DNA of 27,073 bases from a virus (lineage: Duplodnaviria; Caudoviricetes): positions 1 to 27,073 of IMG/VR virus record IMGVR_UViG_3300028586_000350. One strand, written 5' to 3'. Below are positions 54 to 26,985 of the stretch, in pieces (positions within the stretch are counted from its first letter, which is position 1; every line of letters begins with the position of its first letter). The notes below the pieces were generated by a model. That model was not told the DNA's origin. It made no database searches and worked only from the letters and a program-made list of their open reading frames with translations. The translations under genes and the position numbers were made by a program.

Positions 54-127
54 TGGAGCGGGTAACGGGAATCGAACCCGTGTATTCAGCTTGGAAGGCT
101 GCTGTACTACCATTGTACTATACCCGC
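54..127 (-). tRNA. tRNA-Gly(TCC), intact, CCA encoded
   Basis: The reverse complement reads GCGGGTATAGTACAATGGTAGTACAGCAGCCTTCCAAGCTGAATACACGGGTTCGATTCCCGTTACCCGCTCCA. Acceptor stem GCGGGTA/TACCCGC, anticodon loop CT-TCC-AA, T-loop TTCGATT, 3' CCA. Confidence 0.97.
90..127. repeat. Left att core (38-bp direct repeat, 5' half of tRNA-Gly up to the anticodon loop)
   Basis: CTTGGAAGGCTGCTGTACTACCATTGTACTATACCCGC is identical to 26948-26985. Confidence 0.95.
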
Positions 128-205: not shown

Positions 206-318
206 CAATGGGGCGGGTGCCTTGCTCTTATTCAAACGCGTGCCCCGGTGCAAGGCTCGTGGCGCCCTGATATAAAGCCGATACGCTTGCCACGGAGCCG
301 ACTTTCCAAGCCAATGCG

Positions 319-966: not shown

Positions 967-969
967 ATC

Positions 970-2262
970 TCAGCCCTGCTCGTCGATGCTGGCTAGGGCC
1001 TTCAGCAGCGCTCTGCGGACCTTGCCAATTGGCAAGCGAGGGAGCGCACCAAGTCGGCCGTCGCGGTAAAAGTCCTCAAAAGGACTGTCTACCTTAACAA
1101 AAGCTCGTTCATACTCGTCTAGGCTCTTTAAAGTTGAATTGCCATCATCCTTAGATACGAACCATATCTGATCACGTCTTAGCATTGTGGGGTCCAAGAC
1201 GTTTGTATCATGCGTTGTAAAAACTAATTGGGCGCCAAGTTTGTTAATTTGGTTATCATGAAAAAGCTTTAGCAATAATTGAATTATGTCTGTGTGCAAA
1301 TTTGCATCAAGTTCATCAACAATGACGGGTGATCCGTCAGTAAATGCATGCATAATTACGGGTAAAAGCTCCACCAACCGCAATGTCCCGCTAGACATAT
1401 CATCCTCATCAAATTCCATAAGCTCACCGGATGCCGCTTTAATCCAGTAGCTTGCGCGCCTTTTATTGTCCGCAATAATATTCTCTTTAACGCTGTCAGG
1501 TAAGTTATCCGGCAGTCTGATCTCGCCCGGATCCTCGTTATCCTCGACCGTGAGGCGGCTTATTCCCGTGTCGGCTAAGCAAATCAGCTCGCTGATCGCT
1601 TGCACCATGGCTTCGTCCGCAACCGACAGGCCTGGAGAAATTCTGCTTCCGGCGGGAATGTACGTCAGCCGCAAAAAGTACTGATATATCTCGCGAATGG
1701 AAGCGGGGGCAGAGGCGTCGTTCCCCGCGCGCGAAAGATATGCGGCGTTTTGGAAGAAAGGAAAGCGACGTGTGCCGCCCTTATAGGTGCCGCCAAGTTT
1801 CATTGTCATCCAGGTATCGTCTGAATTCCGCTCAAAGACGAGAGCGCGCGATCGCTTGGCGAAAGAATATAAGCTCTCTGAAACAACCCGTGAGGAATTA
1901 TACGAAATGGAATATCGATACCGAATCCCAGATGGGACTACGAACTCAATCTCCATCGAGACGGGCTGTGCCGCGTATGCATCCGATAGAAGATACGGCT
2001 CGTAAGGGCGTATTGAAGAGCCATCTTTGCGTGCATCGGATTTGATTACCATCCAGCGCAGTGCAGCCAAGGCGCGCACTACATTAGACTTTCCGGCGGC
2101 GTTTGCTCCGAGGATAGCCGCGGAGCGCAGGATTGCGTACCGGCCATCCTCAATCAAGGTGAAGTTTTCCGGTAGCCTACTGCGCGCATGTTCCACGTTG
2201 AGGCTGAGCGTCTGCTCGTCCCGAATGGATCGGAAATTTGAAATGGTAAAATCAACAAGCAT
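970..2262 (-). CDS. rloA: RloA/AbiLi-like ABC-type (AAA_21) ATPase
   Basis: N-terminus MLVDFTISNFRSI, Walker A GANAAGKSN, signature MSSGT, Walker B VIVDELD, H-loop FTTHD, LRRDQIWFV and YRDGRLGALP. The ATG at 2262 is preferred over the TTG at 2307. Confidence 0.9.
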   Translation of the reverse strand: MLVDFTISNFRSIRDEQTLSLNVEHARSRLPENFTLIEDGRYAILRSAAILGANAAGKSNVVRALAALRWMVIKSDARKDGSSIRPYEPYLLSDAYAAQPVSMEIEFVVPSGIRYRYSISYNSSRVVSESLYSFAKRSRALVFERNSDDTWMTMKLGGTYKGGTRRFPFFQNAAYLSRAGNDASAPASIREIYQYFLRLTYIPAGSRISPGLSVADEAMVQAISELICLADTGISRLTVEDNEDPGEIRLPDNLPDSVKENIIADNKRRASYWIKAASGELMEFDEDDMSSGTLRLVELLPVIMHAFTDGSPVIVDELDANLHTDIIQLLLKLFHDNQINKLGAQLVFTTHDTNVLDPTMLRRDQIWFVSKDDGNSTLKSLDEYERAFVKVDSPFEDFYRDGRLGALPRLPIGKVRRALLKALASIDEQG

Positions 2263-2535
2263 ATCGGTGTCTCGAATTCGAGGCGGTTTTTTGTGATCTG
2301 AGCTCAAATTGCTGCGAAATCGTTATTGCGCTAACGATGCGGATCTGTCCACTGCCAAGCCGTTTGAGGCCAGCCGTAGGCGTTGGCGACAGCGTGGCCG
2401 GCCGAACTGGGGGGCGTGGTCAGTTAAGTGCGAAGCCGCTGCCGCGATTAATGGAACGCTTGAGAGTCGGCGGCATGCTCATTGTGCGTATGTCTTTCAC
2501 GTGGCGCGACTGCCGGGAGCTGGTTAGGCTGAGCC

Positions 2536-3810
2536 ATGAGTGATGACGTTGAGCTCTATGTAGGGCAGTTAGCTGTGCCGGATGCGGCGTATATGCCTTG
2601 GCAGGCTATCAGTGAGATGATCTTCTACGAGGGGGATATGTATCACCGACCACCGAAGGCGGCGCATGCCGTGGTGCGGCGGACGTGTGGTCTGTATTAT
2701 GACGAGGCGCCGGAATTTTATCATTACCTTCTGGCGCCGGCGGCGACTGTTCGCAAACGTCTGCTAATAAACGGCTATACGGACGAGTTTTGCGCGAGGG
2801 CATGGGAAGCTGCGCGAAGCGATGAAGTAAATTTCAAAGAGAAATATGCAGCCGAATCTGGCGGGGTTCGCGACGCTGATTACCAATTGATCAAGCATGT
2901 CACTCTGTCCGAATGGCTGCAGCTCATTAGGGACGAGGTTGCCGCCTCTCCTGGATCTATAATCGCTGGTAAAGTGAATCCCTGGCGCATCCCAAGACTT
3001 TTAAGTGGGGCTGGTGATGTTTTCGTCAAACTTGCTCTTCTCCTGCAAGTATTCCCAAAATCGCCTGTTTGGATGGAGTGCGGGTACCTCTACGACCATG
3101 AGGAGGAGCCACGATCACCGCAGCAGATCGCGCGTGACGAAGATAAACAGCTAGCTGACTTCCCATCAGGGAAAATAATAGTTCTAACTGAAGGAAAGGC
3201 GGACACGCGTCTGATAACGGCTGCTTTGCAATCGTTTTATCCAGAGTATGCGGAAGCTTACCAATTTCTGGACTTTGACGAGTTCCGAATCGAAGGTGGC
3301 GCATCGCTTTTGGCTCGAATGATAAAAATCTTATCTGGCGCTCGCGTGCAGAACAGGATGATTGCGCTATTCGACAACGATGCAGCAGGACTTGAGGCTT
3401 ACCGATCGTTACATTCCGTTCGCTTCCCGCGTCATGTTCGATTGATGTTGTTACCTGACACGAAGCTTGCGGCCAGTTACCCGACGCTAGGTCCTGCCGG
3501 ATTGACGCAGATGAACATAAACGGTGCTGGAGCATCGATTGAGCTCTATCTCGGCCGTAGTTCTCTAGCGACGTCAAGTGGTGACATGCGGCCCGTCCGT
3601 TGGGCGCAATGGATGGAAAACGTCGGCCGATACCAAGGGCAAATACAAGACAAGGATGCTATCTCAAGGGCATTTACCAACTCGCTTAAGCAAGGGGTCC
3701 CCCCGAAAGATATGCGTCGACAATTTCCGGAAATGGATCACTTACTGCAAACAATATTTGCTGCATTTGAAAACTTGCCACCATCTCCAATAGAAGCACT
3801 CTACGACTAG
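2536..3810 (+). CDS. HEPN/Toprim-associated N-terminal domain plus Toprim domain protein (putative defence nuclease)
   Basis: Toprim motifs IIVLTEGKAD and ALFDNDAAG, plus GASIELYLG. The N-terminal segment (VRKRLLINGYT) resembles HEPN/Toprim-NTD1. Low GC. Confidence 0.75.
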   Translation: MSDDVELYVGQLAVPDAAYMPWQAISEMIFYEGDMYHRPPKAAHAVVRRTCGLYYDEAPEFYHYLLAPAATVRKRLLINGYTDEFCARAWEAARSDEVNFKEKYAAESGGVRDADYQLIKHVTLSEWLQLIRDEVAASPGSIIAGKVNPWRIPRLLSGAGDVFVKLALLLQVFPKSPVWMECGYLYDHEEEPRSPQQIARDEDKQLADFPSGKIIVLTEGKADTRLITAALQSFYPEYAEAYQFLDFDEFRIEGGASLLARMIKILSGARVQNRMIALFDNDAAGLEAYRSLHSVRFPRHVRLMLLPDTKLAASYPTLGPAGLTQMNINGAGASIELYLGRSSLATSSGDMRPVRWAQWMENVGRYQGQIQDKDAISRAFTNSLKQGVPPKDMRRQFPEMDHLLQTIFAAFENLPPSPIEALYD

Positions 3811-3826
3811 AAAACTATAGCGTCGT

Positions 3827-4390
3827 TTAATTTTGCCATTCATCGGGTGTAAGTGGAATATTTGATACGAGCGCTGGATAGCTGATTGCCATGGGGTGTG
3901 TGCTCAAAACGGTCCTTGGGTAAGAATAGCACTTTATTTCGTCGGATCGAGCAGTCCAAAGAAAGTTGTATTTTTCGTAGAATGGTACCGGTGTTCGATC
4001 GCTGTTAAAAGTATCATGTTTTACGCCAATCGGCAAAATGTTGGCTTCAGGGTGATAGTCGTGCGCCCATGCTAGCATGGCGTTCATCATGATTGCGCCA
4101 AGACCGTGCCGTTTCAGCAAGGCATGTACTTCAAAATACCCGCCAGGTATCTTAACGCCATTGTCTCGAACCTCGCTGTAACTTGAAATTTGCAATGTGC
4201 GTTTCGGGCCAATACCCCGTTGGATAAGCCCAGTATGTCCGACAATGCGGATTCTAACGTCAACCTTGAGTTGGGAACGTAAAATGTCGACCGTCGCATA
4301 CAGCGGACCAGACTCGCCTTCGACGCGTCGATCGCCATCGAGATCTAAACGATAGAGCTCAGTAACTGTGCTTGGTGCAACAAGGGGCAT
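3827..4390 (-). CDS. GNAT-fold acetyltransferase-like protein
   Basis: Motif A-like FEVHALLKRHGLGAIMMNAMLAWA and C-terminal PFYEKYNF. Low GC, directly downstream of the integrase. Confidence 0.6.
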   Translation of the reverse strand: MPLVAPSTVTELYRLDLDGDRRVEGESGPLYATVDILRSQLKVDVRIRIVGHTGLIQRGIGPKRTLQISSYSEVRDNGVKIPGGYFEVHALLKRHGLGAIMMNAMLAWAHDYHPEANILPIGVKHDTFNSDRTPVPFYEKYNFLWTARSDEIKCYSYPRTVLSTHPMAISYPALVSNIPLTPDEWQN

Positions 4391-4459
4391 GGCACTGAGA
4401 TAACGCTTCCTAGGTACAAGTTAAATGCTTGTCGCATCGCTTTCCTTATACCCCAAGCC

Positions 4460-5737
4460 TCAAACGATCTTCGCTGGGCGGCTGATCTGGCGCGGCGCGC
4501 GGTCGTGGGTGAGGTCGACGGCGAGCATCGCCATGCCGGTCGTGCGGGGCAGGTAGGTTTCCAGGATCTTCTTGACGCTGTCGAGCCGGTGCCCGGTGAT
4601 CGCGGCGATCAAGTGGTCAGGGATCCCGCGCTGACCCATCGTGACGACGCAGGTGCGGCGGAAGTCGCGAAACTCAATGTCGGCGACCTCCGCCGCCAGC
4701 TCGAGGTCGCCGGCCTTGGTGAGCGTGGCAGCTGCGCGCAGGCGGATCCGGTTGAACCGGAACTGGAACTGAGTCTGGCGGGTGCGGCGCTCAGCCGGGT
4801 CGCTGCTCGTCCAGGGGCGTTCGTTCTTCTCGTCGTACAGGATCGTCGTCAGTCCGAGCTTGCGCGAAGCGGCGATCGCCGCCTCGATATGGACGCGGGC
4901 GGGGCCGACGATCGGGACGCTGACCCAGCGGTCGGTCTTTCCCTGGCGCATTCGGATCCCCATCACGCGGCCGTCGGGCTCGCGCGCGGCGAGGCGGGCA
5001 TAGACGGCGGGATCGTCCGCCTCATAGGGCTGGATCTCGTTGTAACGGTTCTGCTGCATCTTCAGCAGATCCTCCTGTCGCTGTCCGATCGTCCAGGCGA
5101 GGAACATCGCGGCCGCCATATTGACGCGGCCGTGCGCGAGTGCGTCGGCGATCAGCGCGTTCTGGCACAGCTCGCTCGCGAACTGCTGGCGCGGCGCCGG
5201 CGTCGCGGTGTCGAGATCGCCGGCGGCCGGGTTGACGGGGATCCGCTCGTTGTTGAGCGCCCAGCCCCAGAGGCTGCGCAGCACCTTCAGCGTGTTGAAG
5301 GCGGTGGTCGCGCGGATCTCACCATCCTTGCGGGGCGCATAGAGCGCGTCACGCAGCTGCAGGATGTTGGTGCGGGTGATCGCGTCCATGCGCTCCGTCC
5401 CCGCCCATTTGCTGATCATCCGGAGCTTCGACGCATATTCGGTGCGCGTCTTCTCCTTCAGCTTGGGGAAGCGGTGCAGCTTGAATTCGGCGATCACCGC
5501 GTCGACCGTATGGGCCTTGTCCATTTTGCGGACGTCCGCGGGGTCGGCGGTGCCGGCGCGCCAGGCGGCGACCTCGTCATTGCGTGCGCGGGCGGCGGTC
5601 ATCGCGGCGCCCTCGTCCTGCCCGAGGACGAGGGGCTTCCAGCCCGCCGCCTTCAGCGTCGCGGACGGTTGCCAGTAATAGCGGACACCGCCGGCGGTCT
5701 TCTTGACGGTGAGCATCGGGATCGAGATCTTCGCCAT
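4460..5737 (-). CDS. int: Tyrosine recombinase, phage integrase
   Basis: Catalytic pattern GQRQEDL (R), QGKT (K), FRDFRRT (RxxR in place of HxxR), ITGH and ETYL (Y), with an N-terminal arm-binding-like region (VRYYWQP). Confidence 0.93.
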   Translation of the reverse strand: MAKISIPMLTVKKTAGGVRYYWQPSATLKAAGWKPLVLGQDEGAAMTAARARNDEVAAWRAGTADPADVRKMDKAHTVDAVIAEFKLHRFPKLKEKTRTEYASKLRMISKWAGTERMDAITRTNILQLRDALYAPRKDGEIRATTAFNTLKVLRSLWGWALNNERIPVNPAAGDLDTATPAPRQQFASELCQNALIADALAHGRVNMAAAMFLAWTIGQRQEDLLKMQQNRYNEIQPYEADDPAVYARLAAREPDGRVMGIRMRQGKTDRWVSVPIVGPARVHIEAAIAASRKLGLTTILYDEKNERPWTSSDPAERRTRQTQFQFRFNRIRLRAAATLTKAGDLELAAEVADIEFRDFRRTCVVTMGQRGIPDHLIAAITGHRLDSVKKILETYLPRTTGMAMLAVDLTHDRAPRQISRPAKIV

Positions 5738-5788
5738 GGCGGGGGCTCCTTCGGCGGATTTGAGTGTGACGCGGCTCGCGTCGATCGG

Positions 5789-6262
5789 TCAAGCGGCTGC
5801 TGCGCGGCGCTCCGTGGCGGCTCTGGCCGCGATCGCGTCGTCCGACCATGTCATGTGCCACGTCATGTCGTGGATGCTCTCCAGCAGGCGCAGGCGGAGA
5901 TCGGCGGTGGCCTGGTCGACGAGCCCGCGTTCGACATAGGCGGGATAGTCGGCGCGCCGGATCAGGATCTCACGGCGCAGGCACTGGATCCGTTCGGTCC
6001 AGCTGGCCGTTCCGCGGGGCGGCGCGCCGGCGCGGGCCAGCGTGCCCGTCAGATCGTCGGCGATCGCGCCCATCACGCGCAGCTCGCGATCGGCGTCGGC
6101 GCGGGACAGCCGGCCCTTCTGGATCATCCCCGGGTAGAGGCGGATCCGGATCTGCAGCTCGGCCTCGGCCTCCGCCGCCATGTCGCCGAGCGTTTCCAGC
6201 GCGAGGACGTCGCGATCGTCGCGGTAGAAAATGAAGGCGAAGTCGAAGGTGGCGGCGGTCAC
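5789..6262 (-). CDS. Hypothetical phage early protein with an internal two-fold repeat
   Basis: Probable GTG start at 6262. It contains two similar units, ELQIRIRLYPGMIQKGRLSRADADRELRVMGAI and EILIRRADYPAYVERGLVDQATADLRLRLLESI. Confidence 0.7.
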   Translation of the reverse strand: MTAATFDFAFIFYRDDRDVLALETLGDMAAEAEAELQIRIRLYPGMIQKGRLSRADADRELRVMGAIADDLTGTLARAGAPPRGTASWTERIQCLRREILIRRADYPAYVERGLVDQATADLRLRLLESIHDMTWHMTWSDDAIAARAATERRAAAA

Positions 6263-6435
6263 GACCTGGGTTTTCCGGGCGTGAGGCGTTGATGTTGCTC
6301 GAGGGCTTCCTTGGCGATCCGTGCCTTGCTTTTTAGCCTGACGCGCGGCGTCGGTGTGGGCATGACTGGCGCGGCAATCGCCGGCGCCGAGCTCGGCCGA
6401 TCGAACTTTCCCGCATTGCGTTCCCAGGCGTTCAC
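6259..6435 (-). CDS. Small hypothetical protein (58 aa)
   Basis: GTG-started ORF (MNAWERNAGK...TPGKPRS) whose TGA overlaps the next GTG (GTGA). It is below the ORF-track cutoff. Confidence 0.35.
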   Translation of the reverse strand: MNAWERNAGKFDRPSSAPAIAAPVMPTPTPRVRLKSKARIAKEALEQHQRLTPGKPRS

Positions 6436-6475
6436 CGGAACTCCGCATCGGCGTTCGTGCTGACACGTATCGCCA

Positions 6476-6814
6476 TCACGCCGCCCTTCGATGTTCGAGC
6501 GCCACGGCTGCGCGGATCTCAGTGCCGTGCTGGTTGAGCGTGTAGAAGGGCATCGTCGGTGCGTTGATGAAGACGGTCTTCAGCGGCAGCTCGCGAACGA
6601 GGACTGGTCGCCACGGCTTGGTGAACTGCAGGCGATAGAGGACCTGCCAGCGGATGCTGTCGCGCAGGCGCAGGTCGGTCTGGTGGCGCGGAACCGCGAA
6701 GTCGAGGACGTGGAGCGCACGACGCTGGGCGGGGGGCAGGCGCTTGTAGATCGCCAGGCGGGCGGCGTGGCACCGCCGGCAGCGGCAACCGAGGGCGGGG
6801 CTCGCGTGCGTCAT
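6476..6814 (-). CDS. Hypothetical phage protein with CxCxxC (112 aa)
   Basis: ATG at 6814 with GGAGG just upstream and an ATGA overlap with the preceding remnant. Sequence MTHASPALGCRCRRCH...EHRRAA. Confidence 0.7.
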   Translation of the reverse strand: MTHASPALGCRCRRCHAARLAIYKRLPPAQRRALHVLDFAVPRHQTDLRLRDSIRWQVLYRLQFTKPWRPVLVRELPLKTVFINAPTMPFYTLNQHGTEIRAAVALEHRRAA

Positions 6815-6935
6815 GCCTCCGCATCCTGCTCGACCGGCACTGAACCGAAGAAATCGGGATAGGTCGCGGCCGAGGCGGTGCAGGCCGGGCAGGCGGGAAA
6901 ATCCTCGCCTGCGGCGTCTTGGACGGCGAACCTCC
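6811..6935 (-). pseudogene. C-terminal remnant of a small Cys-motif early protein
   Basis: FAVQDAAGEDFPACPACTASAATYPDFFGSVPVEQDAEA* is coupled to the next gene. Upstream of about 6935 this frame is only the antisense of the portal. Confidence 0.55.
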
Positions 6936-7537
6936 CGATCGGGATGGAGATGATCGAGGGCGAGCGCGCGGACATCCGCACCGGCTTCCTCGAGGACTTC
7001 TTCAAGATCCTGACGGATCCGTCGGATCGCATGACCGCGACGCAGGTCCTCGAAATGGTCGGCAAGCAGGGCGTGCTCGTCGCGCCCTATGCCGGGCAGT
7101 ACGAGACCGAAAAGCAGAACCCCGTCACCATGCGCGATCTCGACCTGGCGATGGCGGCCGGACAGATCGATCCGTTCCCCGACGTCGTGCTCGAGGCGGG
7201 GGCGTATCCGAAGATCGAGTATGAAAACCCGCTGACGCGGATGGCGCGTGCCGAGGAAGCGGCGGGCCTCACGCGGTGGTTCGAGGCGATGACGCCGCTG
7301 GCGCAGATCGATAACGGCGCGGTGTTCGACCATATCGACACGGACAATGCGGCACCGGGCCTGGCGGACGTGCTGGGCGTGCGGCCGAGCTGGGTCGCGA
7401 CGCCGGCGCAGGTCGCGGCGAAGCGCAAGGCGCGGGCGGACAGCGAAGCCGTCGCGAGCGGGGCGGGCCAGCTGGCCGACGTCGCCGGCGCGTACAAGGA
7501 CATCGCATCCGCCAACCAGATCACGGAGGCGGTATGA
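6926..7537 (+). pseudogene. Portal (head-tail connector) protein, C-terminal ~200 aa only
   Basis: RMTATQVLEMVGKQGVLVAP, IEYENPLTRMARAEE and DHIDTD...LADVLGV match the C-terminal part of T7/BPP-1-type connectors, which are normally over 500 aa. The N-terminal part is absent. Confidence 0.85.
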
Positions 7538-7749
7538 TGGTACGGCCAACCTTTTCCGCGCCTCCGGTCCTCGACGGCGAGCGATATGATCAATATTTTC
7601 ATCGCCTCATCAAGGCGTTTGAAGATCATGTAAACGGTCCAGCGCCGCTCGAGCTGGTCGCCAAGTCCTGCGACTGCACGTGCGGAACGCCGTGCCCGCA
7701 GGGCAAGGCCGGTTCGTCCGTGCGTTGCACGATCATGGTGCGGCCATGA
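7534..7749 (+). CDS. Small Cys-rich hypothetical protein
   Basis: ATGA overlaps at both ends, GGAGG RBS and the motif CDCTCGTPC...C. Confidence 0.65.
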   Translation: MMVRPTFSAPPVLDGERYDQYFHRLIKAFEDHVNGPAPLELVAKSCDCTCGTPCPQGKAGSSVRCTIMVRP

Positions 7750-8018
7750 CGCCTGCATTGATCGAAATCGTTCCCACAAGTGGGAGCAGGATGGGGCGGG
7801 AAGCGCGTCGGCTGGTGCTGTTCGAGCGGGCGAAAGAGGCGGTCGGCGGATCGCGCAAGCTCGGCCTGATCATCGATCAGGGGCGCCGATCCGTCAATCA
7901 CAAGCTCGTCGCGGAGCGGAGCCTGACCAGCTGGGAGCTGAAGCTGACGGCCGACGCGCTCGAAGTGATGGCGCGCGAGCTCGACCTGCTCGTCGCCGAT
8001 ATCCGGAAGGTGATCTGA
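7746..8018 (+). CDS. Small putative HTH DNA-binding protein
   Basis: ATG at 7746 overlaps the previous stop. AKEAVGGSRKLGLIIDQGRRSVNHKL has a Cro/Xre-like HTH pattern. Confidence 0.55.
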   Translation: MTPALIEIVPTSGSRMGREARRLVLFERAKEAVGGSRKLGLIIDQGRRSVNHKLVAERSLTSWELKLTADALEVMARELDLLVADIRKVI

Positions 8019-8392
8019 TGAACAACGCGCAGCGAAAGCTGGTCCTGACCCTGTCGCGTGACTGGAAAACGATCCTGCCGCAATTGTCGGCGCCGGCATG
8101 GTTGCGGGCGATCGCCGGGTTGCTCGTCGCGATCGTCGGGCGGGGCTGGGCGTACCGCATCACCTTCATGGCCGACGACCGCGTGCTGCGCATCGCGGCG
8201 CATCACGTCCTGGCGGATCTCCGGACGTTCTGCTGCGCGACCGCGGACGGACGCCGCCCGATCTTTTCATCCGATCCCCTCGTCATGGCGCGCCGGCTTG
8301 GCCGCCGCGAGGCGTTCGATCGGATCATCAAGTACCTCAATCTGGACGAGGCACAGGTCCAGAAAATCATGGAGATAGACGATGGTATCTGA
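8018..8392 (+). CDS. Bbp19-like conserved phage head-region protein
   Basis: VLADLRTFC...FSSDPLVMARRLGRREAFDRIIKYLNL, located between portal and scaffold. Confidence 0.75.
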   Translation: MNNAQRKLVLTLSRDWKTILPQLSAPAWLRAIAGLLVAIVGRGWAYRITFMADDRVLRIAAHHVLADLRTFCCATADGRRPIFSSDPLVMARRLGRREAFDRIIKYLNLDEAQVQKIMEIDDGI

Positions 8393-9341
8393 GAATGGTG
8401 GCGAGGGCGGCGGGGATTTCGGCGGTGCGGCCGATCTGCTGCCAGCCGGTTCGAGTGACGGCGGTGCCGCTGGCGGCGCAGCCGGTGGTGATGGCGGTTC
8501 GGACGCCGGCGGTGCGGGCGGCGGTGCCGCTGTTGGCCAAGGCGGCGGCGGAGAAGGCGGCGGCGGTGCGGCGCCCGACTGGTTCGAGAAGGTTTCCGCG
8601 ACGGCTGGCGAGGGGGAAACATCCTCGAACCGCGACTGGCTTGCGGCGAAAGGCGTGAAGGATCTCGACACGCTCGTCAAAAGCTACCGCGAGGCGGAAA
8701 AGTCGATCCGTGACGGCGGGCGGATCAAGGTCCCCGGGGAAGGCGCAAAGCCCGAGGAATTGTCCGCGTTCCACAAGGCGATCGGCGTGCCCGAAGCGGT
8801 CGAAGGCTATGAGATCAAGGGCCCCGAGGGCGTGCCGCTCAACGAAGCGTTGCTCGGATCCCTGCGCGAGAGCGCGCTGAAATACGGCACGCCGAAGGCC
8901 GCATTCGAGGGGCTGGTCGGCGACTTCATCAAGGCGCAGCTCGACGAGGCGGCGACCGAGGCGAAGCGGCAGGACGATCTGGCGTCCGGCTGGTTGAAGG
9001 AGCAGGGCGGCAAGGCGGACGAGCAGCTGGCGCACATCAACGCCGCGGCGCGGTCGCTCGGCTTTACCAAGGCGGACATGAGCGGATTGCGGGCGGGGCT
9101 CGGTGCCGATCGTGCGCTCGGCCTGCTGGCAAAACTCGGCAGCGGCATGGCCGAGGACGTCCTGATCACCGGGGGCAGCAACCGGTTCGGCGTGTCGGGC
9201 GCCGAGGCGCAGGTCGAGCTCGATCGGCTCAAGGGTGATGCCGATTTCCAGAAGAAGAATATCCCCGGTTCGGCCGAGCGGACGCGCTGGGATCGTCTCA
9301 ACAAGCAAGCCGCCGAATTCCAGGCAGCGAGGCCCGAATGA
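8382..9341 (+). CDS. Capsid scaffolding/assembly protein
   Basis: Gly/Ala-rich N-terminus, then LVKSYREAEK, FHKAIGVPE..EGY and LLAKLGSGMAED. It precedes the major capsid gene. Confidence 0.8.
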   Translation: MVSENGGEGGGDFGGAADLLPAGSSDGGAAGGAAGGDGGSDAGGAGGGAAVGQGGGGEGGGGAAPDWFEKVSATAGEGETSSNRDWLAAKGVKDLDTLVKSYREAEKSIRDGGRIKVPGEGAKPEELSAFHKAIGVPEAVEGYEIKGPEGVPLNEALLGSLRESALKYGTPKAAFEGLVGDFIKAQLDEAATEAKRQDDLASGWLKEQGGKADEQLAHINAAARSLGFTKADMSGLRAGLGADRALGLLAKLGSGMAEDVLITGGSNRFGVSGAEAQVELDRLKGDADFQKKNIPGSAERTRWDRLNKQAAEFQAARPE

Positions 9342-9451
9342 CGTAATTGTGCCTTTTATGTAACAATCTGTGTTTATGAACTGTATCTTAGTACTTGAGC
9401 ATTGATCTGTTTGTGATGAGAGACGACATCGCCGCGACGCCCTCGAAATGA

Positions 9452-9482
9452 GGAAGCCCCAGCGGACTAGGCCGGGGCTTCC
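9452..9482. terminator. GC-rich hairpin, possible terminator or processing site
   Basis: GGAAGCCCC (9452-9460) pairs with GGGGCTTCC (9474-9482). Only a weak U-tract follows, on the minus strand. Confidence 0.4.
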
Positions 9483-9586
9483 GATCGGGGCACCAGGCGG
9501 CTCTTGTACGGAACGCATGGTAGAAGCCCGACGTCCGCTTCCAAAGCGGCGTTGGGTTTCCGCGTCAAGTCCGTTCGTGACTAAAA

Positions 9587-9922
9587 TTGGAAACTATCGT
9601 GACTACTATCAACGGAAAGAATGTTCTCGCAGCCGGTACAATTCTCTTTAATACCGGCGATGTCGTTCGTGTCGCCTCGAATCCATCGATCATTTTTCAG
9701 GCGAATGAAGCCGCGCCATACGGCCTCGTCGGCTCAGTCGACAGTGCCGGCAATTTTGTGCTTTCAATTAATGGCATGGCAACAAACAGCGATGTCGCCA
9801 CGCATGGGACCGGGCTTATGAACGGTGCGCCGATGCGGTTTAGCGCGTATGCCTTCCGGGCCGCATCGGCGAGCCCGACCAATCATCTTTACAAGGTCGA
9901 TTATAGCTTCGTTGCAGCCTAA
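9587..9922 (+). CDS. Moron-like hypothetical beta-rich protein (111 aa)
   Basis: TTG start, lower GC than its flanks, inserted between scaffold and capsid genes. Confidence 0.65.
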   Translation: METIVTTINGKNVLAAGTILFNTGDVVRVASNPSIIFQANEAAPYGLVGSVDSAGNFVLSINGMATNSDVATHGTGLMNGAPMRFSAYAFRAASASPTNHLYKVDYSFVAA

Positions 9923-9924
9923 CG

Positions 9925-9955
9925 CTTGACGAGCGAATCGCTCTCTGATTCATAG
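9925..9955 (+). promoter_or_regulatory. Putative late promoter for the capsid operon
   Basis: CTTGACGAGCGAATCGCTCTCTGATTCATAG has a TTGACG -35, two GANTC sites and a matching copy at 22753-22783. Confidence 0.65.
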
Positions 9956-10097
9956 GGCACTATGCCGCGTGGGAAGTCGCACGTGATCCACACGGTATAG
10001 TGCCCGCCAAGCCTCGATCGCCCGGGTCCCCCTGCTGGAGTGCAGCGCCGATCGCGGGCGTTAAACGATAGAGCGGCCGGACCCACGTCCCCAAGCC
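9955..10097 (+). ncRNA. Structured 5' leader of the capsid mRNA (candidate cis-regulatory RNA)
   Basis: 13-bp stem GGGCACTATGCCG/CGGTATAGTGCCC, then a multi-stem domain flanked by CCAAGCC direct repeats. Confidence 0.45.
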
Positions 10098-10131
10098 AAT
10101 CGAAATCGGTATCAACCTTTTTCGTGAGGCC

Positions 10132-11064
10132 ATGATGGCAGACGTCAACACAACCGCAAATTATGAATTCAAGAACAACCTGGAGCTTAAGCTTCAGCAA
10201 AACGAGTCGGTCCTATGGGATGCGACGGAAGAGCAGGATTGCACCGGGACCGAGAAGGAAACGGTCAAGGATCTGCTCGACGCCGGCCTGCCGCAGGAAG
10301 CCGACGAACGCTATGGCGATCTGAAGCGTACCGCGGTCGACCACGACCGCGTGTGGATCGTCAAGCCGAACGAACTCTACTTCAACGAGTATATCGAGGG
10401 CGCCGACCAGCTCGGCACCAAGATCGGGCTCGAGGGCGGGTTCACGATGGCGGCGATGGGGATGATGCACCGCAGCTGGGACAGCCGGATCCTCGAGGGG
10501 ATGTATGGCTCGATGCTGATGGGCAAGGACGGCACGATCACGTCGCCATTCCCCGCCGGCAACGTTGTCCCCGTCACGACCGGCGGTGCGTCGGGTGCGC
10601 AGCGGATGAACGTGGCGAAGGTTCGGCAGGCCAAGGTGCAGCTGGGCCAGGCGTTCAATGATCCCAGCGACAAGCGGTATCTCGCGCTGAGCGAGGTGCA
10701 GGCCGACGATCTGCTCAACGAGGTGCAGGCGACGTCGGGCGACTATGCCAAGGCGTTCGGGATCCGGCTGGATGCCGAGGGGAACCTGATCGGGATCCTT
10801 GGTTTCAACATCGTCCGGATCGAGCTGCGCAACCCGAAGCTGCTCGCGTTCCAGCGTGGCCTGACGGTCACGGGCACCGGCTACACCCGCAACCCGTTCT
10901 GGGTGCGATCGGGCGTGCGCAAGGGTGTTTGGCGCAAGCTGCGCACCGCGATCAAGGACCAGCCGTCCAAGGTCGACGTCCGCAGCGTCTTCGCCGGTAC
11001 GACCGTCGCGGCGACGCGTACCCAGGCCGGCAAGGTCGGCATCATCGAAAACAGCGAGGCTTAA
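10132..11064 (+). CDS. Major capsid protein
   Basis: 310 aa, position after the scaffold, GAGG RBS. NNLELKLQQNESVL, MHRSWDSRILEG and GILGFNIV resemble BPP-1/epsilon15-type capsid proteins. Confidence 0.85.
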   Translation: MMADVNTTANYEFKNNLELKLQQNESVLWDATEEQDCTGTEKETVKDLLDAGLPQEADERYGDLKRTAVDHDRVWIVKPNELYFNEYIEGADQLGTKIGLEGGFTMAAMGMMHRSWDSRILEGMYGSMLMGKDGTITSPFPAGNVVPVTTGGASGAQRMNVAKVRQAKVQLGQAFNDPSDKRYLALSEVQADDLLNEVQATSGDYAKAFGIRLDAEGNLIGILGFNIVRIELRNPKLLAFQRGLTVTGTGYTRNPFWVRSGVRKGVWRKLRTAIKDQPSKVDVRSVFAGTTVAATRTQAGKVGIIENSEA

Positions 11065-11065
11065 A

Positions 11066-11509
11066 ATGGCTGACTTTTACGCGCTCGAATTCGTGGGCGG
11101 TCCCGACGGGACCGTCATGCCGCCCCGGAAGCTCGACGGCCGGGTCGTCAGTGCCAAGAAGCGTCGCACCCGTGCCGTCAAGCCGACGACGAACATCCTG
11201 GCGGTCGGCGACCGGCTGTATGTCGGCAAGCTGCCGCAGGACGGCGTGCTCAACAAGCTGGAAGGCATCACCGGCACTTCGCTCGGCACGACGACGCTGT
11301 CGTTCGGTACGACCGCGACGCCGGCAAAGTACGCCAGTGCGGTGACGTTGACCGCGCTTAACACGCCGGTCGCGCTGGGGCCGCTCGCAGCGGCGGCCGT
11401 CCTCGCGCCGACGACGGTCGACGAGGATATCTGGATCACGATCGGCGTCGCGGCGATCCCGGCCGCGGTCGTTGCCGCCTTCTATCTGGAATACACGATC
11501 GCGACCTGA
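11066..11509 (+). CDS. Capsid cement/decoration protein (putative)
   Basis: ATG at 11066 directly after the capsid stop. Beta-rich 147 aa with GDRLYVGKLP..., at the position of the BPP-1 cement gene. Confidence 0.7.
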   Translation: MADFYALEFVGGPDGTVMPPRKLDGRVVSAKKRRTRAVKPTTNILAVGDRLYVGKLPQDGVLNKLEGITGTSLGTTTLSFGTTATPAKYASAVTLTALNTPVALGPLAAAAVLAPTTVDEDIWITIGVAAIPAAVVAAFYLEYTIAT

Positions 11510-11562
11510 GGGTCGCCACACAACTCGGACCGGGACCTGCGGGGGCGCAGGGACCGACTGAG

Positions 11563-11599
11563 GCCGGGCGGCGCCGTCATCGCCGCCCGGCACCCCTTT
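11563..11599 (+). terminator. Putative terminator/attenuator after capsid and cement genes
   Basis: Perfect 11-bp stem GCCGGGCGGCG/CGCCGCCCGGC followed by ACCCCTTT. Confidence 0.55.
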
Positions 11600-11627
11600 C
11601 GGAGCCCCAGTCTTTTGGAGTTTAGCG

Positions 11628-11825
11628 ATGGCGCAGGTCAAACTCACGGTGGTTCGCGGCAAGCCCCAGATCAAGGATATCACGCAGAGCGCCGGCACGG
11701 CGATCTCCGGATCCGATGCGATGGAACTCAACATCGATTATACCAAAATGACCAAGGGCGACGCCCTGGTCATGATCGACAATCTCCGTGCGGAGATCTT
11801 CGCGTCCCCCTGGCCGATGCTCTGA
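11628..11825 (+). CDS. Small hypothetical virion-region protein (65 aa)
   Basis: GGAG RBS, phage-like codon usage, in-operon position. Confidence 0.75.
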   Translation: MAQVKLTVVRGKPQIKDITQSAGTAISGSDAMELNIDYTKMTKGDALVMIDNLRAEIFASPWPML

Positions 11826-11833
11826 GCAGGTAG

Positions 11834-12442
11834 GTGGCGGACTTCGTCACCATCGCCAATCTTGCGGCCTCGTCCTTGGGCGAGGACGACCAGCTGCGTT
11901 CGCCCGACGACGACACGCATCTGTCGCGATCCGTCAAAGCCGTCTGGAGCGTCGAGCGGCGTGCCGCGCTGCGCGACCATAGCTGGAATTTCGCGATGCG
12001 GCGCAGGGCGCTGCCCGCGTCCGCGTCACAGGATGCGACGCCGTTCGGTTTCGCCTATCGCATGCCCTCCGAAAGCATCCGCCTGATTGAGGTGCTCGGC
12101 TATCGCCGCGGCGACTACCAGCTCGAGGGGCCGTTCATCTTGTCGGATGCGGCCGCGCCGCTGTCGATCCGGTACATCGCCGACGTGGAAGAGCCCGCCG
12201 AATGGGATGACATGTTCGCCAAGGCGTTCGCGATGCGTGTCGCATGGCAGATCGCCGACCGGATCACCGGCGACACCAACCGCGTCCAGATGGCCGAGCG
12301 CAAATATCGCGCGGCACTGTCCGAAGCCAAACGCGTCGACGCGCGCGAAAACCCGCAGGTCGCGTCGGTGCCGACCGGCTGGGAGCTGGCGCGGACGGGC
12401 GGCGGGGAGATCGTCGACCGCAACGGGCTCGTCTGGCCATGA
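11834..12442 (+). CDS. Head-tail adaptor / tail tubular protein A (T7 gp11-like)
   Basis: VTIANLAASSLGE, ALRDHSWNFAMRR, FAYRMPSESIRL and WDDMFAKAFAMRVA motifs. Confidence 0.85.
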   Translation: MADFVTIANLAASSLGEDDQLRSPDDDTHLSRSVKAVWSVERRAALRDHSWNFAMRRRALPASASQDATPFGFAYRMPSESIRLIEVLGYRRGDYQLEGPFILSDAAAPLSIRYIADVEEPAEWDDMFAKAFAMRVAWQIADRITGDTNRVQMAERKYRAALSEAKRVDARENPQVASVPTGWELARTGGGEIVDRNGLVWP

Positions 12443-14655
12443 CGCTGCAGCGCCCGATCGCGACGAGCTTCAATGGCGGCGAGATCTCGCCCCGCATGGG
12501 CGGGCGCGTCGACACCGCCGTGTACCAGGTCGCGGTCGACCAGGCGCAGAATTTCGTCCCGACCGTCGAAGGCGCGATCGTCAAGCGGCCGGGCTTCGAA
12601 TATATCCGCGGCGCCGCGGCGACCGCCAGCTGGCTGACGCAGTTCCGGTTCAACCTCACGCAGGATTATGTGATCGAGTGGAGCGACGGGAAACTGCGCT
12701 TCTACACCAACGAGGCGCGGATCGAGACGTCGCCGAACGTGCCCTATGAGGTCGCGGTGCCCTATACCGCCGCGGAAGCGCCGTTCGTCTCGTTCCAGCA
12801 GAGTTTCGATCGCCTGTATCTCGATCATCCGGCGCATCCGCCGGCGCGGCTGACGCGGACGTCTGCAACGACGTTCGTCTATGAGGTCCTGCCCTTCGCC
12901 GATGGTCCGTTCGCCGACCGCAACACCAACCAGGCCGCGCTGGTCACGGCGAGCGGGACGACGGGCGTCGTCACCCTGACGTCGACGACGCCGATCTTCC
13001 TGGGGGGGCATGTCGGCGCACCGTTCCGCCTCGAGGCGCTCGACTTCTCGACGATCACGGCCTGGGAAGCACAGATGAAGGCCGTCACGATCGGCGCGAT
13101 CCGTCGATCGGAGGGCCGGGCCTATACCGCGGCGACCGCGGGGACGACGGGCACGATCCAGCCGATCCACAGCACCGGCAGCGAGTGGGACGGTTCGAAT
13201 ACGAACGACGTGAACGACAAGGGGCCGTTCGGGATCCGATGGACGTATCGGCACGACCAGTTCGGGCAGTTGCGCATCGATGCGGTGACGTCGCCGACGA
13301 CCGCGACCGCGACCGTCATTCGGACGTTGCCCGACAGCGTGACCAGCGTCGGGTCCTGGCGCTGGACGCATGGCGCGTTTTCGACCGCGGCCGGCTGGCC
13401 ATCGGTGGTCATCGCCTGGGCGGGACGGCTGTGCCATTTTAAAAACTTCGAGCTGCTCGCGTCTGTCGCCGGGGATTATCTCAACCATGCCGCCTATACC
13501 GCCAGCGGCATCACGCCGGCGGATCTGGCGTTTCGCCGCACCCTGTCGACCGAGGATCCGGTGCTTTGGGCGATGGGCGACCGCAAGCTGATCGTCGGCA
13601 CGGCCAGCCGCGAAATCGCGATCGGCGCGATCAATTCGGCGTCGGCGGTCGCAGGCGACAATATCGAGGCGGTGCCGCAGAGCTTCTATGGCAGCGAACG
13701 CGTGTTCCCCGCCCAGATCGGGACGACCGGCGTCTTCGTCCAGCGCGGCGGCCGCAAGTTGCGCCAGGCCGAATATGACTTCGCGCGCGATCGCTATGCG
13801 GCCGCGAACATGACGGTGTGGTGCCGGCACATTACCCGGGGCGGCATCACACAGATGACGTTCCAGAAGGAGCCCGAAGAGCTGCTCGTCGCGGTGCGCG
13901 GCGACGGCCAGCTGATCGTCCACCCGCACGCGCCGGAACAGGACATCAAGGGGTTCGCGCGGATCCTGCACGGCAATGGTCGCGTGCTGTCCGCGGTGTG
14001 CTGCGCGAATTCGAGCGGCGACCAGGACGCGCTCTGGGTCCTCGTCGAGCGGGCTGACGGCGTGCGCAGCGTCGAGTGCATGGCGACCTGGCACGACGAC
14101 GAGGATCCGATCGAGGACGCGTTCTATGTCGACAGCGGGACGACGGTGATGGCCGCGGCGGGGCAGACGCATTTCACCGGAGCGACGCATCTGGCGGATC
14201 GGGCGGTTTCGATCCTTGCCGCGGGTGGCGTCGTGACGGGCGTGACGGTGGCGGCGGACGGCAGCTTTACGGTACCGGCTTCGGTCGTACCGGCGGACCG
14301 CGCCTATCGCCTGACGGTCGGCTTGCCGTACACCGCCCGCGTCGTGACGCTGCGACCGGAGCTGCGCGGCAGTGGCGAGACGTCGCAGGGCAGGCGGCAG
14401 CGCCTGGTCAAGATGGTCCTGCGACTGATCGCGACGACCGGCATCAAGATCGGCGCGAAGGGCGGGATCCTCGACAATCTCGTCGACCGCGCCAGCGACG
14501 AATTCATGGACTCACCCGTGCCGCTGTTCACCGGCGACAGCGAAAGGTCCGTAAGCGGTGGATGGGACCGCAACGGGCAGGCGGTGTTCGAAAGCGACGC
14601 CCCGCTGCCGGCGACGATCGTCGCCGCCATGCCGACGCTGGCGGTCACGTCATGA
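12439..14655 (+). CDS. Tail nozzle / tail tubular protein B (T7 gp12-like)
   Basis: ATG at 12439. SFNGGEISPRMGGRVD, EGAIVKRPG, GWPSVV...GRL and VGLPYTARV motifs, 738 aa. Confidence 0.88.
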   Translation: MTLQRPIATSFNGGEISPRMGGRVDTAVYQVAVDQAQNFVPTVEGAIVKRPGFEYIRGAAATASWLTQFRFNLTQDYVIEWSDGKLRFYTNEARIETSPNVPYEVAVPYTAAEAPFVSFQQSFDRLYLDHPAHPPARLTRTSATTFVYEVLPFADGPFADRNTNQAALVTASGTTGVVTLTSTTPIFLGGHVGAPFRLEALDFSTITAWEAQMKAVTIGAIRRSEGRAYTAATAGTTGTIQPIHSTGSEWDGSNTNDVNDKGPFGIRWTYRHDQFGQLRIDAVTSPTTATATVIRTLPDSVTSVGSWRWTHGAFSTAAGWPSVVIAWAGRLCHFKNFELLASVAGDYLNHAAYTASGITPADLAFRRTLSTEDPVLWAMGDRKLIVGTASREIAIGAINSASAVAGDNIEAVPQSFYGSERVFPAQIGTTGVFVQRGGRKLRQAEYDFARDRYAAANMTVWCRHITRGGITQMTFQKEPEELLVAVRGDGQLIVHPHAPEQDIKGFARILHGNGRVLSAVCCANSSGDQDALWVLVERADGVRSVECMATWHDDEDPIEDAFYVDSGTTVMAAAGQTHFTGATHLADRAVSILAAGGVVTGVTVAADGSFTVPASVVPADRAYRLTVGLPYTARVVTLRPELRGSGETSQGRRQRLVKMVLRLIATTGIKIGAKGGILDNLVDRASDEFMDSPVPLFTGDSERSVSGGWDRNGQAVFESDAPLPATIVAAMPTLAVTS

Positions 14656-25229: not shown

Positions 25230-25387
25230 TCATGCGCTACCTTTTCGAACCTGAGCCCGGTGTCAGCATGGCTCGCGAGATCGGCGAGCTCGTATCCCAA
25301 GACGGTGACACGATCATGCTGCTTTGGAACGGTCAGGAGTACACCCGCAACCGTATGACGGACTTCGTGCGCGAGGTGATGGAGTGA
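25226..25387 (+). CDS. Small hypothetical protein (53 aa)
   Basis: ATGA overlap with the tailspike stop; MIMRYLFEPEPG...FVREVME. Absent from the ORF track because it is under 60 aa. Confidence 0.6.
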   Translation: MIMRYLFEPEPGVSMAREIGELVSQDGDTIMLLWNGQEYTRNRMTDFVREVME

Positions 25388-25420
25388 TCGCGCTTCGCAT
25401 CCTCAGCGGGGTGGTGGCTC

Positions 25421-25882
25421 ATGCCTAATTCCGGATCTTTTCTGGACGATGCACTAGCCCCGCGGATGGCCGGGTCAACGGAAGCTATGACGCTACAGGT
25501 GCTCGCTCAAATCCGGGACAGCCTGTCCGCGCAGAGCCGTGATTTCCGATCTGTATCTGAAGGTATTGCTGACGTTCGCGAACGGGTCATCCGCCTTGAG
25601 GAACGTGACCGACGGCTCGACGAGCTCGAATTTGACATGAAAGCGACCGATACAAAGGTCGGCATTTTAATGCGTGACAAGGACAATCGCGACGGTGCGA
25701 CGAGCTTTCTGAGCAAGGTACCAACGTGGTTGTCTTTCGTTATCGCGCTCGGAAGCGTGTTTTCGGCGATCTATTTGCTTGGCCGGCAAGTTGGATTTGT
25801 TCCAGCTCCACCTTCACGCTTCGAAACGATCACACCGCGGGACGAGCGTCGAGCTCAAGGCGTTCTAGGGGGGCGACAATGA
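25421..25882 (+). CDS. Coiled-coil plus single-TM membrane protein (holin/antiholin candidate)
   Basis: Heptad region (IADVRERVIRLEERD) then hydrophobic WLSFVIALGSVFSAIYLLG. It overlaps the endolysin start. Confidence 0.6.
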   Translation: MPNSGSFLDDALAPRMAGSTEAMTLQVLAQIRDSLSAQSRDFRSVSEGIADVRERVIRLEERDRRLDELEFDMKATDTKVGILMRDKDNRDGATSFLSKVPTWLSFVIALGSVFSAIYLLGRQVGFVPAPPSRFETITPRDERRAQGVLGGRQ

Positions 25883-26463
25883 CGACACTCGCAGAGGTCG
25901 TATTTGACCTTGAGGCCGAATTGAATGAACTGATTGAGCGGGAGGGTGGGTTCGTCGATCATCCAAACGACAGGGGCGGCCCCACCAGATACGGCATCAC
26001 GCAGGCGGTGGCGCTCGCCAATGGCTGGAACGGCCGCATGCAGGATCTGTCGGTGGCGTTCGCCAAAGATATCTATCGCCGGAAATACTGGTCAGCGCCT
26101 GGCTATGACAAGATCGCAGCGATGGGCCTGCCGCTGCTCGCGGCCGAGCTGTTCGACACCGGCGTCAACATGGGGCCGACGACGCAGGGCAAGTGGCTGC
26201 AGCGCTGGCTCAACGCGCTGTGCGGGCAATATCCAAACTATGTACATATCGGCGTCGACGGTGCTGTCGGCGCCGGTACCCGGGCTGCGATCGCCTATCT
26301 GATCGGCAAGCGCGGTTTGAAGGCGACGCAGGACGCCCTGGTCGATGCGGTCAACTGTTCGCAGGGCGCGCGGTATCTCGAGCTGGTCGAAGGACGCGCA
26401 GCCAATGAGGCGTTTATCTGGGGATGGCTGACCAGCCGGATCTCCCTGGCAGTCGCGGCATGA
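25879..26463 (+). CDS. Endolysin, glycoside hydrolase family 108 with a PG-binding C-terminus
   Basis: ATG at 25879. EGGFVDHPNDRGGPTRYGIT, LFDTGVNMG, VDGAVGAGT and FIWGWLTSRI motifs. Confidence 0.93.
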   Translation: MTTLAEVVFDLEAELNELIEREGGFVDHPNDRGGPTRYGITQAVALANGWNGRMQDLSVAFAKDIYRRKYWSAPGYDKIAAMGLPLLAAELFDTGVNMGPTTQGKWLQRWLNALCGQYPNYVHIGVDGAVGAGTRAAIAYLIGKRGLKATQDALVDAVNCSQGARYLELVEGRAANEAFIWGWLTSRISLAVAA

Positions 26464-26756
26464 CGTTCCCCATCGTGATCCGGATCGTCCGGCCCAGTGA
26501 CGCGCGCGGGTGGATCGGTCTGGGCGTGTTCCTGCTGACGATCATGGTCTTCGTCATGACGGCGACTATCCCGGCGCTGCGCGAAAACGAGTATTTCAAG
26601 ACGCTCGGCACGCTCGTCGTCGGTGCGTTCATCAAGGACGTCGTCGGCTGGGCCTACAGCGCGACCAAGGGTGGCGGCGAACTTGCCGACCAGAATGCCG
26701 CGATCGTGCGGCGCCAGGCGGAAGGCAATCCGTCACTTACCGGAGACGTCAAATGA
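26460..26756 (+). CDS. Putative holin (two hydrophobic segments)
   Basis: ATGA overlap at 26460. WIGLGVFLLTIMVFVMTATI and TLGTLVVGAFIKDVVGWAYS segments. Confidence 0.7.
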   Translation: MTFPIVIRIVRPSDARGWIGLGVFLLTIMVFVMTATIPALRENEYFKTLGTLVVGAFIKDVVGWAYSATKGGGELADQNAAIVRRQAEGNPSLTGDVK

Positions 26757-26866
26757 AGCTTAATCTGAAGGCGATCGCCAAGGTCGTGATGGCTGTCGCG
26801 CCGATCGTTTTGCCGATCATCCCGGCGGTCAAGGCCGCTGTGAAAGGTGCCAAAAAGCAGCAGTAG
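26753..26866 (+). CDS. 37-aa cationic hydrophobic peptide (lysis-associated)
   Basis: GGAG RBS and ATGA overlap. MKLNLKAIAKVVMAVAPIVLPIIPAVKAAVKGAKKQQ has 7 Lys and no acidic residue. Confidence 0.7.
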   Translation: MKLNLKAIAKVVMAVAPIVLPIIPAVKAAVKGAKKQQ

Positions 26867-26930
26867 CATTCCGACATTGCCCGCAGGCTTTTGGAATGTT
26901 GGAACGATATAGCGTTCTAAGTGCTTGAAA
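26867..26930. promoter_or_regulatory. Putative right att arm: arm-type repeats and an IHF-like site
   Basis: CATTCCGACATT (26867-26878), inverted copy ATGTTGGAA (26896-26904) and TAAGTGCTTGAAA (26918-26930), whose reverse complement has one mismatch to WATCAANNNNTTR. Confidence 0.6.
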
Positions 26931-26947
26931 TTGCGTGCGGGGTGCAA

Positions 26948-26985
26948 CTTGGAAGGCTGCTGTACTACCATTGTACTATACCCGC
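26948..26985. repeat. Right att core: orphaned 5' half of tRNA-Gly with the host upstream flank
   Basis: Identical to 90-127. Sequence to its left (26941-26947) does not continue the tRNA. Confidence 0.95.

Follow-up and report, generated by a model that had tools for sequence, protein, structure and literature searches.

Approximately 13% of the phages of Gram-negative hosts have been reported to have no identifiable spanin, and the available part of the same 2026 paper describes the use of disruptins by such spanin-less phages as open and notes that disruptin diversity hampers prediction (PMC12819732). The nearest described counterpart of the peptide considered here is gp28 of phage phiKT, which, according to the accessible portion of its report, has 56 aa and a net charge of +7, substitutes for lambda Rz/Rz1, associates with both membranes, and was proposed to displace cations from LPS; the same source gives a cut-off for disruptin candidates of a net charge of at least +4 and a length below 80 aa (bioRxiv 10.1101/515445). 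It has also been described, in the part of the source available, that Sphingomonas have no lipid A and that their outer membrane bears anionic glycosphingolipids (PMC9393093). A literature search, with little coverage of subscription journals, found gp28 as the only tested disruptin and no sphingomonad phage for which such peptides had been described. The available text on a Sphingobium phage mentions an unassigned ORF of 48 aa that follows the candidate endolysin (PMC5648845).

The window analyzed here is the whole 27,073-nt stretch of DNA of IMG/VR record IMGVR_UViG_3300028586_000350, in which a direct repeat bounds an entire integrated element carrying integrase, capsid, tail, and internal virion genes (Table 1). 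The portal is reduced to its C-terminal 219 aa, the portal N-terminus and the terminase are absent, and approximately 13-16 kb is missing relative to two related prophages (G433 and G434). Since the terminase and most of the portal have been lost, the prophage probably makes no virions, and the working context of the peptide is the intact relatives of this prophage. A second record (L197) is identical over 207-14068, spanning the deletion junction, and a 26,880-nt contig from another study carries both att copies at its ends and is identical over the compared region (25300-26977). Moreover, the whole peptide gene is covered without difference by contigs of three of the four sequencing runs compared. 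Relatives of the capsid gene (61-83%) were found in four of the 301 genomes examined from the genus to which G029 (a Sphingomonas) belongs, three of them with the att repeat, and the host is therefore probably Sphingomonas.

Two further features of the element were observed. The att repeat corresponds to the 5' half of the tRNA, so that the phage supplies the 5' half and the upstream region of the restored tRNA-Gly; tRNA-targeting elements mostly restore the 3' part. In addition, a cargo of approximately 4.2 kb (319-4390) lies between att and the integrase and is absent there in G433 and G434. It encodes RloB and an AAA_21 ATPase (an Abi-like pair) together with 424-aa and 187-aa ORFs without family match, and may account for the persistence of the deleted prophage, unchanged, in several plant-associated metagenomes.

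Table 1. Features of the prophage ends and the lysis region in the window
Feature	Position	Strand	Basis or remark
Intact tRNA-Gly(TCC)	54..127	-	contains left att copy, 87-127
Integrase	4460..5737	-	phrog_1, E 3e-21
Portal gene, C-terminal fragment	6878..7537	+	right of internal deletion of ~13-16 kb
ORF of up to 153 aa, second holin-like candidate	25421..25882	+	no family match
GH108 endolysin with PG_binding_3 domain, 194 aa	25879..26463	+	phrog_315, E 1e-40; PF05838, PF09374
Holin-like membrane protein, 98 aa	26460..26756	+	ATGA overlaps with endolysin and peptide; 126 homologues
GGAG Shine-Dalgarno-like site	26742..26745	+	7 nt upstream of peptide ATG
Cationic peptide gene, 37 aa, family A, candidate spanin substitute	26753..26866	+	translation, homologues, pN<pS; final ORF of the prophage
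Stem-loop 3' of peptide stop	26866..26945	+	-33.6 kcal/mol, z -3.3; without U-tract
Attachment repeat, 41 nt, 5' half of tRNA-Gly(TCC)	26945..26985	.	right end of prophage

The peptide ORF is a real gene, whose GC content by codon position (0.59/0.32/0.78) is close to that of the holin-like, endolysin, and capsid genes. The initial annotation had described a 37-mer with seven Lys and no Asp or Glu, a GGAG site, and coupling to a holin, and translation of the ORF bears out this composition (net charge +7, Cys absent). The GGAG site and the coupling were also recovered, the latter as an ATGA overlap between the peptide start codon and the TGA of the 98-aa ORF, whereas the name holin for that upstream ORF has no Pfam or PHROG match behind it. 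Since the att repeat starts 78 nt after the peptide stop, no phage gene lies downstream, and a spanin beyond the contig end was ruled out on the same basis. Sequence 74-80% similar to the stem-loop region lies ahead of att in sister prophages. Two alternative frames, 26510-26866(+) and 26654-26971(-), were rejected, neither of which matches any family.

Two Lys/Ala helical segments around a Pro hinge had also been proposed. The C-terminal segment is clearly amphipathic, its moment being reached by 208 of 10,000 composition shuffles, whereas the N-terminal segment does not clearly differ from shuffles (2391 of 10,000 equal it); both segments jointly were equaled in 42 of 10,000. AlphaFold2 models gave a single continuous helix over residues 5-36 without a hinge (pLDDT 82-83, pTM 0.35), and because AlphaFold2 is a weak test for a 37-mer, the hinge is neither shown nor excluded by them. 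The window peptide has a GRAVY of 0.81 and 16 uncharged residues, compared with -0.06 and eight for gp28, and is the most hydrophobic member of its family and could reside in the inner membrane; the scores of the family as a whole fall mostly outside the transmembrane range. No match was found in PHROGs, Pfam, PDB sequences (E<=10), or annotated phages, and the ESM Atlas neighbors reached only 0.78-0.79, which is under the useful level. On the other hand, the expectation that gene callers would easily miss such a gene did not hold, as the exact sequence is present in the ESM Atlas and homologues sit in predicted-protein collections.

The 98-aa protein upstream has one clear hydrophobic helix and a second, marginal one. 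It matched no named PHROG holin, and Phage_holin_3_6 was matched by one of 65 members of its family, at E 0.053; the holin role is presumed from position and the hydrophobic helix. The 153-aa ORF, which overlaps the endolysin, has a charged N-terminal part and one C-terminal hydrophobic helix.

Homologues of the peptide were collected by searches yielding three and then nine proteins; of the nine, one duplicated an earlier match, and another, a repeat-containing caspase-like protein of 539 aa, was excluded. The resulting alignment of family A comprises 12 rows of 37-57 aa with net charges of +2 to +8 (at least +4 in 11 of the 12), in which M-K at the start and a C-terminal helix with lysines are conserved and Ala-Pro is invariant. 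pN was below pS in five of six family A pairs with DNA (the exception being one pair with pN 0.34 and pS 0.29), and in 65 of 66 and 63 of 66 pairs of two other slot peptide families, B and C, respectively. Family A, which the initial annotation had regarded as possibly new, is a new peptide family under purifying selection. A separate observation concerns P0128, a Peptidase_C14 (caspase-like) protein whose five terminal repeats, amphipathic and Pro-containing, score with the peptide profile at E 1e-6.

A peptide-first search of genomes with profile A matched eight of 401 genomes at the genus level and five of 401 at the family level, corresponding to 12 distinct sphingomonad genomes. In all 12, the peptide gene directly follows the endolysin or an endolysin-adjacent membrane (holin-like) gene; in G500 a gap of approximately 200 nt separates it from the upstream gene, and the G817 cassette repeats that of L221. 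The upstream partners vary and include the 98-aa family, several unrelated membrane genes, and a GH19 endolysin, while other upstream endolysins are, by their motifs, presumably lysozyme-like and peptidase-like. A degenerate DNA pattern search gave eight matches, namely two family members and six unrelated sequences, and was set aside. Two loci (L247 and L250, from G053 and G159) contain a GH108-like endolysin, a membrane protein, and an A-like peptide, with no phage genes evident nearby. This three-gene cassette directly precedes what we take to be hslV-like host genes, and is possibly a domesticated lysis cassette. Another locus (L182, G029:C1:845000-865000) has a stretch doubled approximately 9.7 kb apart beside a peptide-bearing prophage, which is either a duplication or an assembly artefact.

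What occupies the slot after the holin-like gene was surveyed in 68 loci (89 fetched, minus 19 duplicates and two cut-off genes). Short peptides were found in 33 of them, spanin-type genes in 20, lone lipoproteins in eight, and one 120-aa protein in another, while the remaining six have no filler or too little DNA; a filler was absent despite ample downstream DNA in only three loci (L046, L075, and L077). The short peptides include four of family A or A-like, 14 of family B (counting one interrupted gene and one located further downstream), 13 of family C, and two of family D, in which the net charge is low or zero. Families A and B have, by eye, an N-terminal pattern and the Ala-Pro motif in common; since profile B does not recognize the window peptide, their kinship is unproven. 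In sister phages, the spanin-type genes occupy the same position with the same ATGA coupling as the peptide, and eight of ten tested i-spanin-like fillers matched PHROG Rz-like spanin families (E<=0.05). The spanin label changes at least eight times on supported branches of the holin tree, which is poorly resolved (61 rows, 100 columns). Cut-offs for a short, cationic, and amphipathic product were passed by 27 of 31 slot peptides and by none of 147 other ATGA-coupled ORFs in the same genomes, the cut-offs having been chosen after the peptides were known and the background ORFs requiring an upstream ORF of 100 codons. The endolysin-first loci (L011-L033), of which L011 alone was inspected, are distant.

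Other fillers were observed in the same slot. The lone lipoproteins (L035:10270-10506, L092, L073, L074, L076, L104, L120, and L122) are 41-119 aa long, with Ala-rich helices and without an i-spanin partner. They may resemble unimolecular spanins or be lipidated disruptors of the outer membrane; the complete record G016 contains no spanin pair. Two non-spanin fillers, of 120 aa (L050:10303-10665) and 101 aa (L213:7838-8143), have a cationic amphipathic N-terminus and no Pfam match, and their records (G019 and G434, respectively) are near-complete and without spanins.

For 28 virus records, the remainder of the record was also scanned for spanins, and 22 of these are at least 90% complete. Twelve of the 22 contain a peptide only, eight a spanin pair without an A, B, or C peptide, and two neither (Fisher p 1.4e-4, the records not being independent). 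Three peptide records (G003-G005) have more than 30% of their DNA in common and count as one cluster, so that there are ten peptide clusters, and G008 (peptide) clusters with G025 (spanin). Relatives with both a peptide and spanins, which had been named in advance as evidence against a disruptin, were not seen in any of the 22, nor was a spanin pair found in any of the 11 scanned peptide-first loci (flanks of up to 10 kb per side, less for G685, G459, and G736; the 3.6-kb contig of G053 lies outside this set). The pair scan recovered 14 of 19 positive controls and leave-one-out phmmer 15 of 18, giving a sensitivity of 74-83%. Four spanin-pair matches in three peptide-bearing records were dismissed by eye as spurious, as was an antisense match in L241 (E 9e-4). 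Exceptions were also found: G018 (84% complete) lacks both peptide and spanin, and the complete G027 has a family B gene (L065:10231-10390) with an in-frame TAG, reflecting a read error, a pseudogene, or read-through, and no detected spanin. Taken together, these two suggest that some phages may lyse without either. Moreover, a DUF1190 lipoprotein lies directly downstream of the peptide in G051, and lone lipoproteins occur elsewhere in G009, G010, G011, and G029.

The exchange can also be followed within the prophage's own lineage, defined by the same capsid, integrase, and att. In the complete G435, an unrelated holin-like gene precedes a family A peptide, and there is no credible lipobox ORF; a weak i-spanin match there (E 0.007) was rejected, being a soluble protein of 242 aa encoded between the terminase and portal genes. 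In G618, a 36-aa, +5 A-like peptide fills the slot; its profile A score is weak, being reached by 3 of 1000 shuffles, and the late strand of G618 has no lipobox ORF. G501 and G520 have instead an i-spanin with an overlapping lipoprotein and no A, B, or C peptide, and G618 and G520 have the GH108 endolysin class and the att site in common with the window. The 101-aa non-spanin protein fills the slot of G434. No credible lipobox ORF was found in the whole element of the window, the deleted 13-16 kb lying outside what could be inspected, and G435 and G434 have no spanin in the region that the window prophage lost. The slot is uninformative in G552, a decayed element in which the fibre is fused to the remnant of a lysin, and in G433, G436, and G437, whose sequence stops at the holin-like gene or shortly beyond it.

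There is direct support for the gene and its conservation, for its coupling within the cassette, and for the alternation of peptide and i/o-spanin pairs in one slot. On this basis, the peptide is probably a disruptin-like spanin substitute whose role would be to break the outer membrane during lysis, resembling gp28 in its proposed function and being neither a spanin nor detectably homologous to gp28. It would be made together with the endolysin and holin and, having neither signal peptide nor lipid anchor, would partition into membranes as a helix with a lysine face. It might then get to the outer membrane before or through the holin lesions and bind anionic outer-membrane lipids, which would be glycosphingolipids if the host is Sphingomonas, so that the weakened outer membrane would rupture after wall removal. 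A broader proposal may tentatively be put forward as a reasonable possibility: the phages of LPS-free sphingomonads could have a plug-in outer-membrane slot with interchangeable fillers (spanin pairs, cationic peptides of three or more families with hardly any relation to one another, and lone lipoproteins), peptides being the commonest, in which the glycosphingolipid membrane would be broken other than by displacement of LPS cations and slot exchange could serve as a general disruptin finder.

Different roles for the peptide were also considered. It is unlikely that the peptide is an inner-membrane lysis accessory (a holin helper, trigger, or antiholin, comparable to LambdaSo Lcc6 or Mu releasin) with the outer membrane handled otherwise. 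Such a role would fit its 16 uncharged residues flanked by lysines, although five of the 12 members have only 12-13. Likewise, its best 17-residue insertion score (3.3) is the lowest of the 12 members and better than two of 18 i-spanin anchors, whereas all 12 members score 3.3-9.1, compared with at most 2.3 for the other 16 anchors; the scale values used for peptide and anchors are those that we take to apply. Moreover, the gene directly upstream of family A is in some genomes the endolysin and in others one of several unrelated holin-like genes, so that the family has no cognate holin. Small unexpected lysis factors working at the holin level have been described, and Lcc6, in the part of the source available, coexists with spanins (10.1101/2024.01.23.576932). 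A holin helper would not be expected to exclude spanins. The outer-membrane step itself might be dispensable, with sphingomonad outer membranes rupturing without a third lysis protein, spanins being often lost, and the peptide having another late role, such as killing or permeabilizing neighboring cells after release. The lack of both genes in G018 and the interrupted gene in the spanin-less G027 are consistent with this, and the rules of lambda may not hold for Sphingomonas without lipid A (PMC9393093, as far as its available text goes). It nevertheless seems quite improbable, as spanin-type genes are retained in 20 of 68 loci and only three loci with ample DNA have no filler; furthermore, a lysis-independent role would permit peptide and spanins together, a combination not seen.

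It is also very doubtful that the ORF is a remnant, such as an i-spanin stump, or that peptide-bearing phages hide unrecognized spanins elsewhere. Some i-spanins do start, by eye, with a cationic amphipathic stretch, the scan is incompletely sensitive, and the window has a large deletion. However, profiles A, B, and C match no spanin-bearing record at E<0.03, and purifying selection and conserved length are found across unrelated cassettes. A sensitivity of approximately 80% also makes missing spanins in all 12 near-complete peptide records unlikely, and no spanin was seen in G435 or G434 in the region absent from the window. A disruptin-like spanin substitute remains the favored reading. The locus provides natural matched pairs of peptide and spanin in the same lineage and att site (and, for G618 and G520, the same endolysin class), by which the disruptin question can be reduced to a simple swap. 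If active, these would be genetically tractable membrane-active peptides for an anionic-glycosphingolipid, not LPS, membrane.

Compared with two-component spanins (lambda Rz/Rz1), the peptide has the same genomic slot and ATGA coupling as the spanin pairs of sister phages, whereas it lacks an N-terminal anchor with a periplasmic coiled coil, Cys, and a lipoprotein partner, and is too short to span the periplasm. Like unimolecular spanins (T1 gp11), it is a single gene in the outer-membrane slot, without their lipobox, Cys, and C-terminal transmembrane anchor after a periplasmic domain (for both spanin types, the accessible text of PMC6139136). LambdaSo Lcc6 is likewise a small, otherwise unassigned, lysis-linked phage protein; it differs in having an N-terminal transmembrane helix and in sitting outside the cassette (available part of 10.1101/2024.01.23.576932). 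The closest resemblance is to phiKT gp28, in that both are short, have a net charge of +7, are predicted to be helical, lack a lipobox or signal peptide, and lie in the lysis cassette of a phage with no detectable spanin; at 37 aa and +7, the window peptide also falls within the size and charge cut-off for disruptin candidates. No homology to gp28 (sequence from NC_019520) was detected with profile A (-1.3 bits, a score reached by 604 of 1000 shuffles) or the 12-row profile (-0.5 bits), and the likeness to gp28 that family B and the C-terminal end of the peptide show by eye did not stand out from either plain or class-preserving shuffles. The window peptide is 19 aa shorter than gp28 and more hydrophobic, has a conserved Ala-Pro core, and is the last gene, whereas gp28 lies between endolysin and holin. 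Its probable host is without LPS, and the proposed LPS-cation mechanism of gp28 cannot apply unchanged if the host indeed lacks LPS. Moreover, whereas gp28 had one near-identical homologue in the part of its report available, several sister phages of the present prophage show a direct swap between peptide and spanin.
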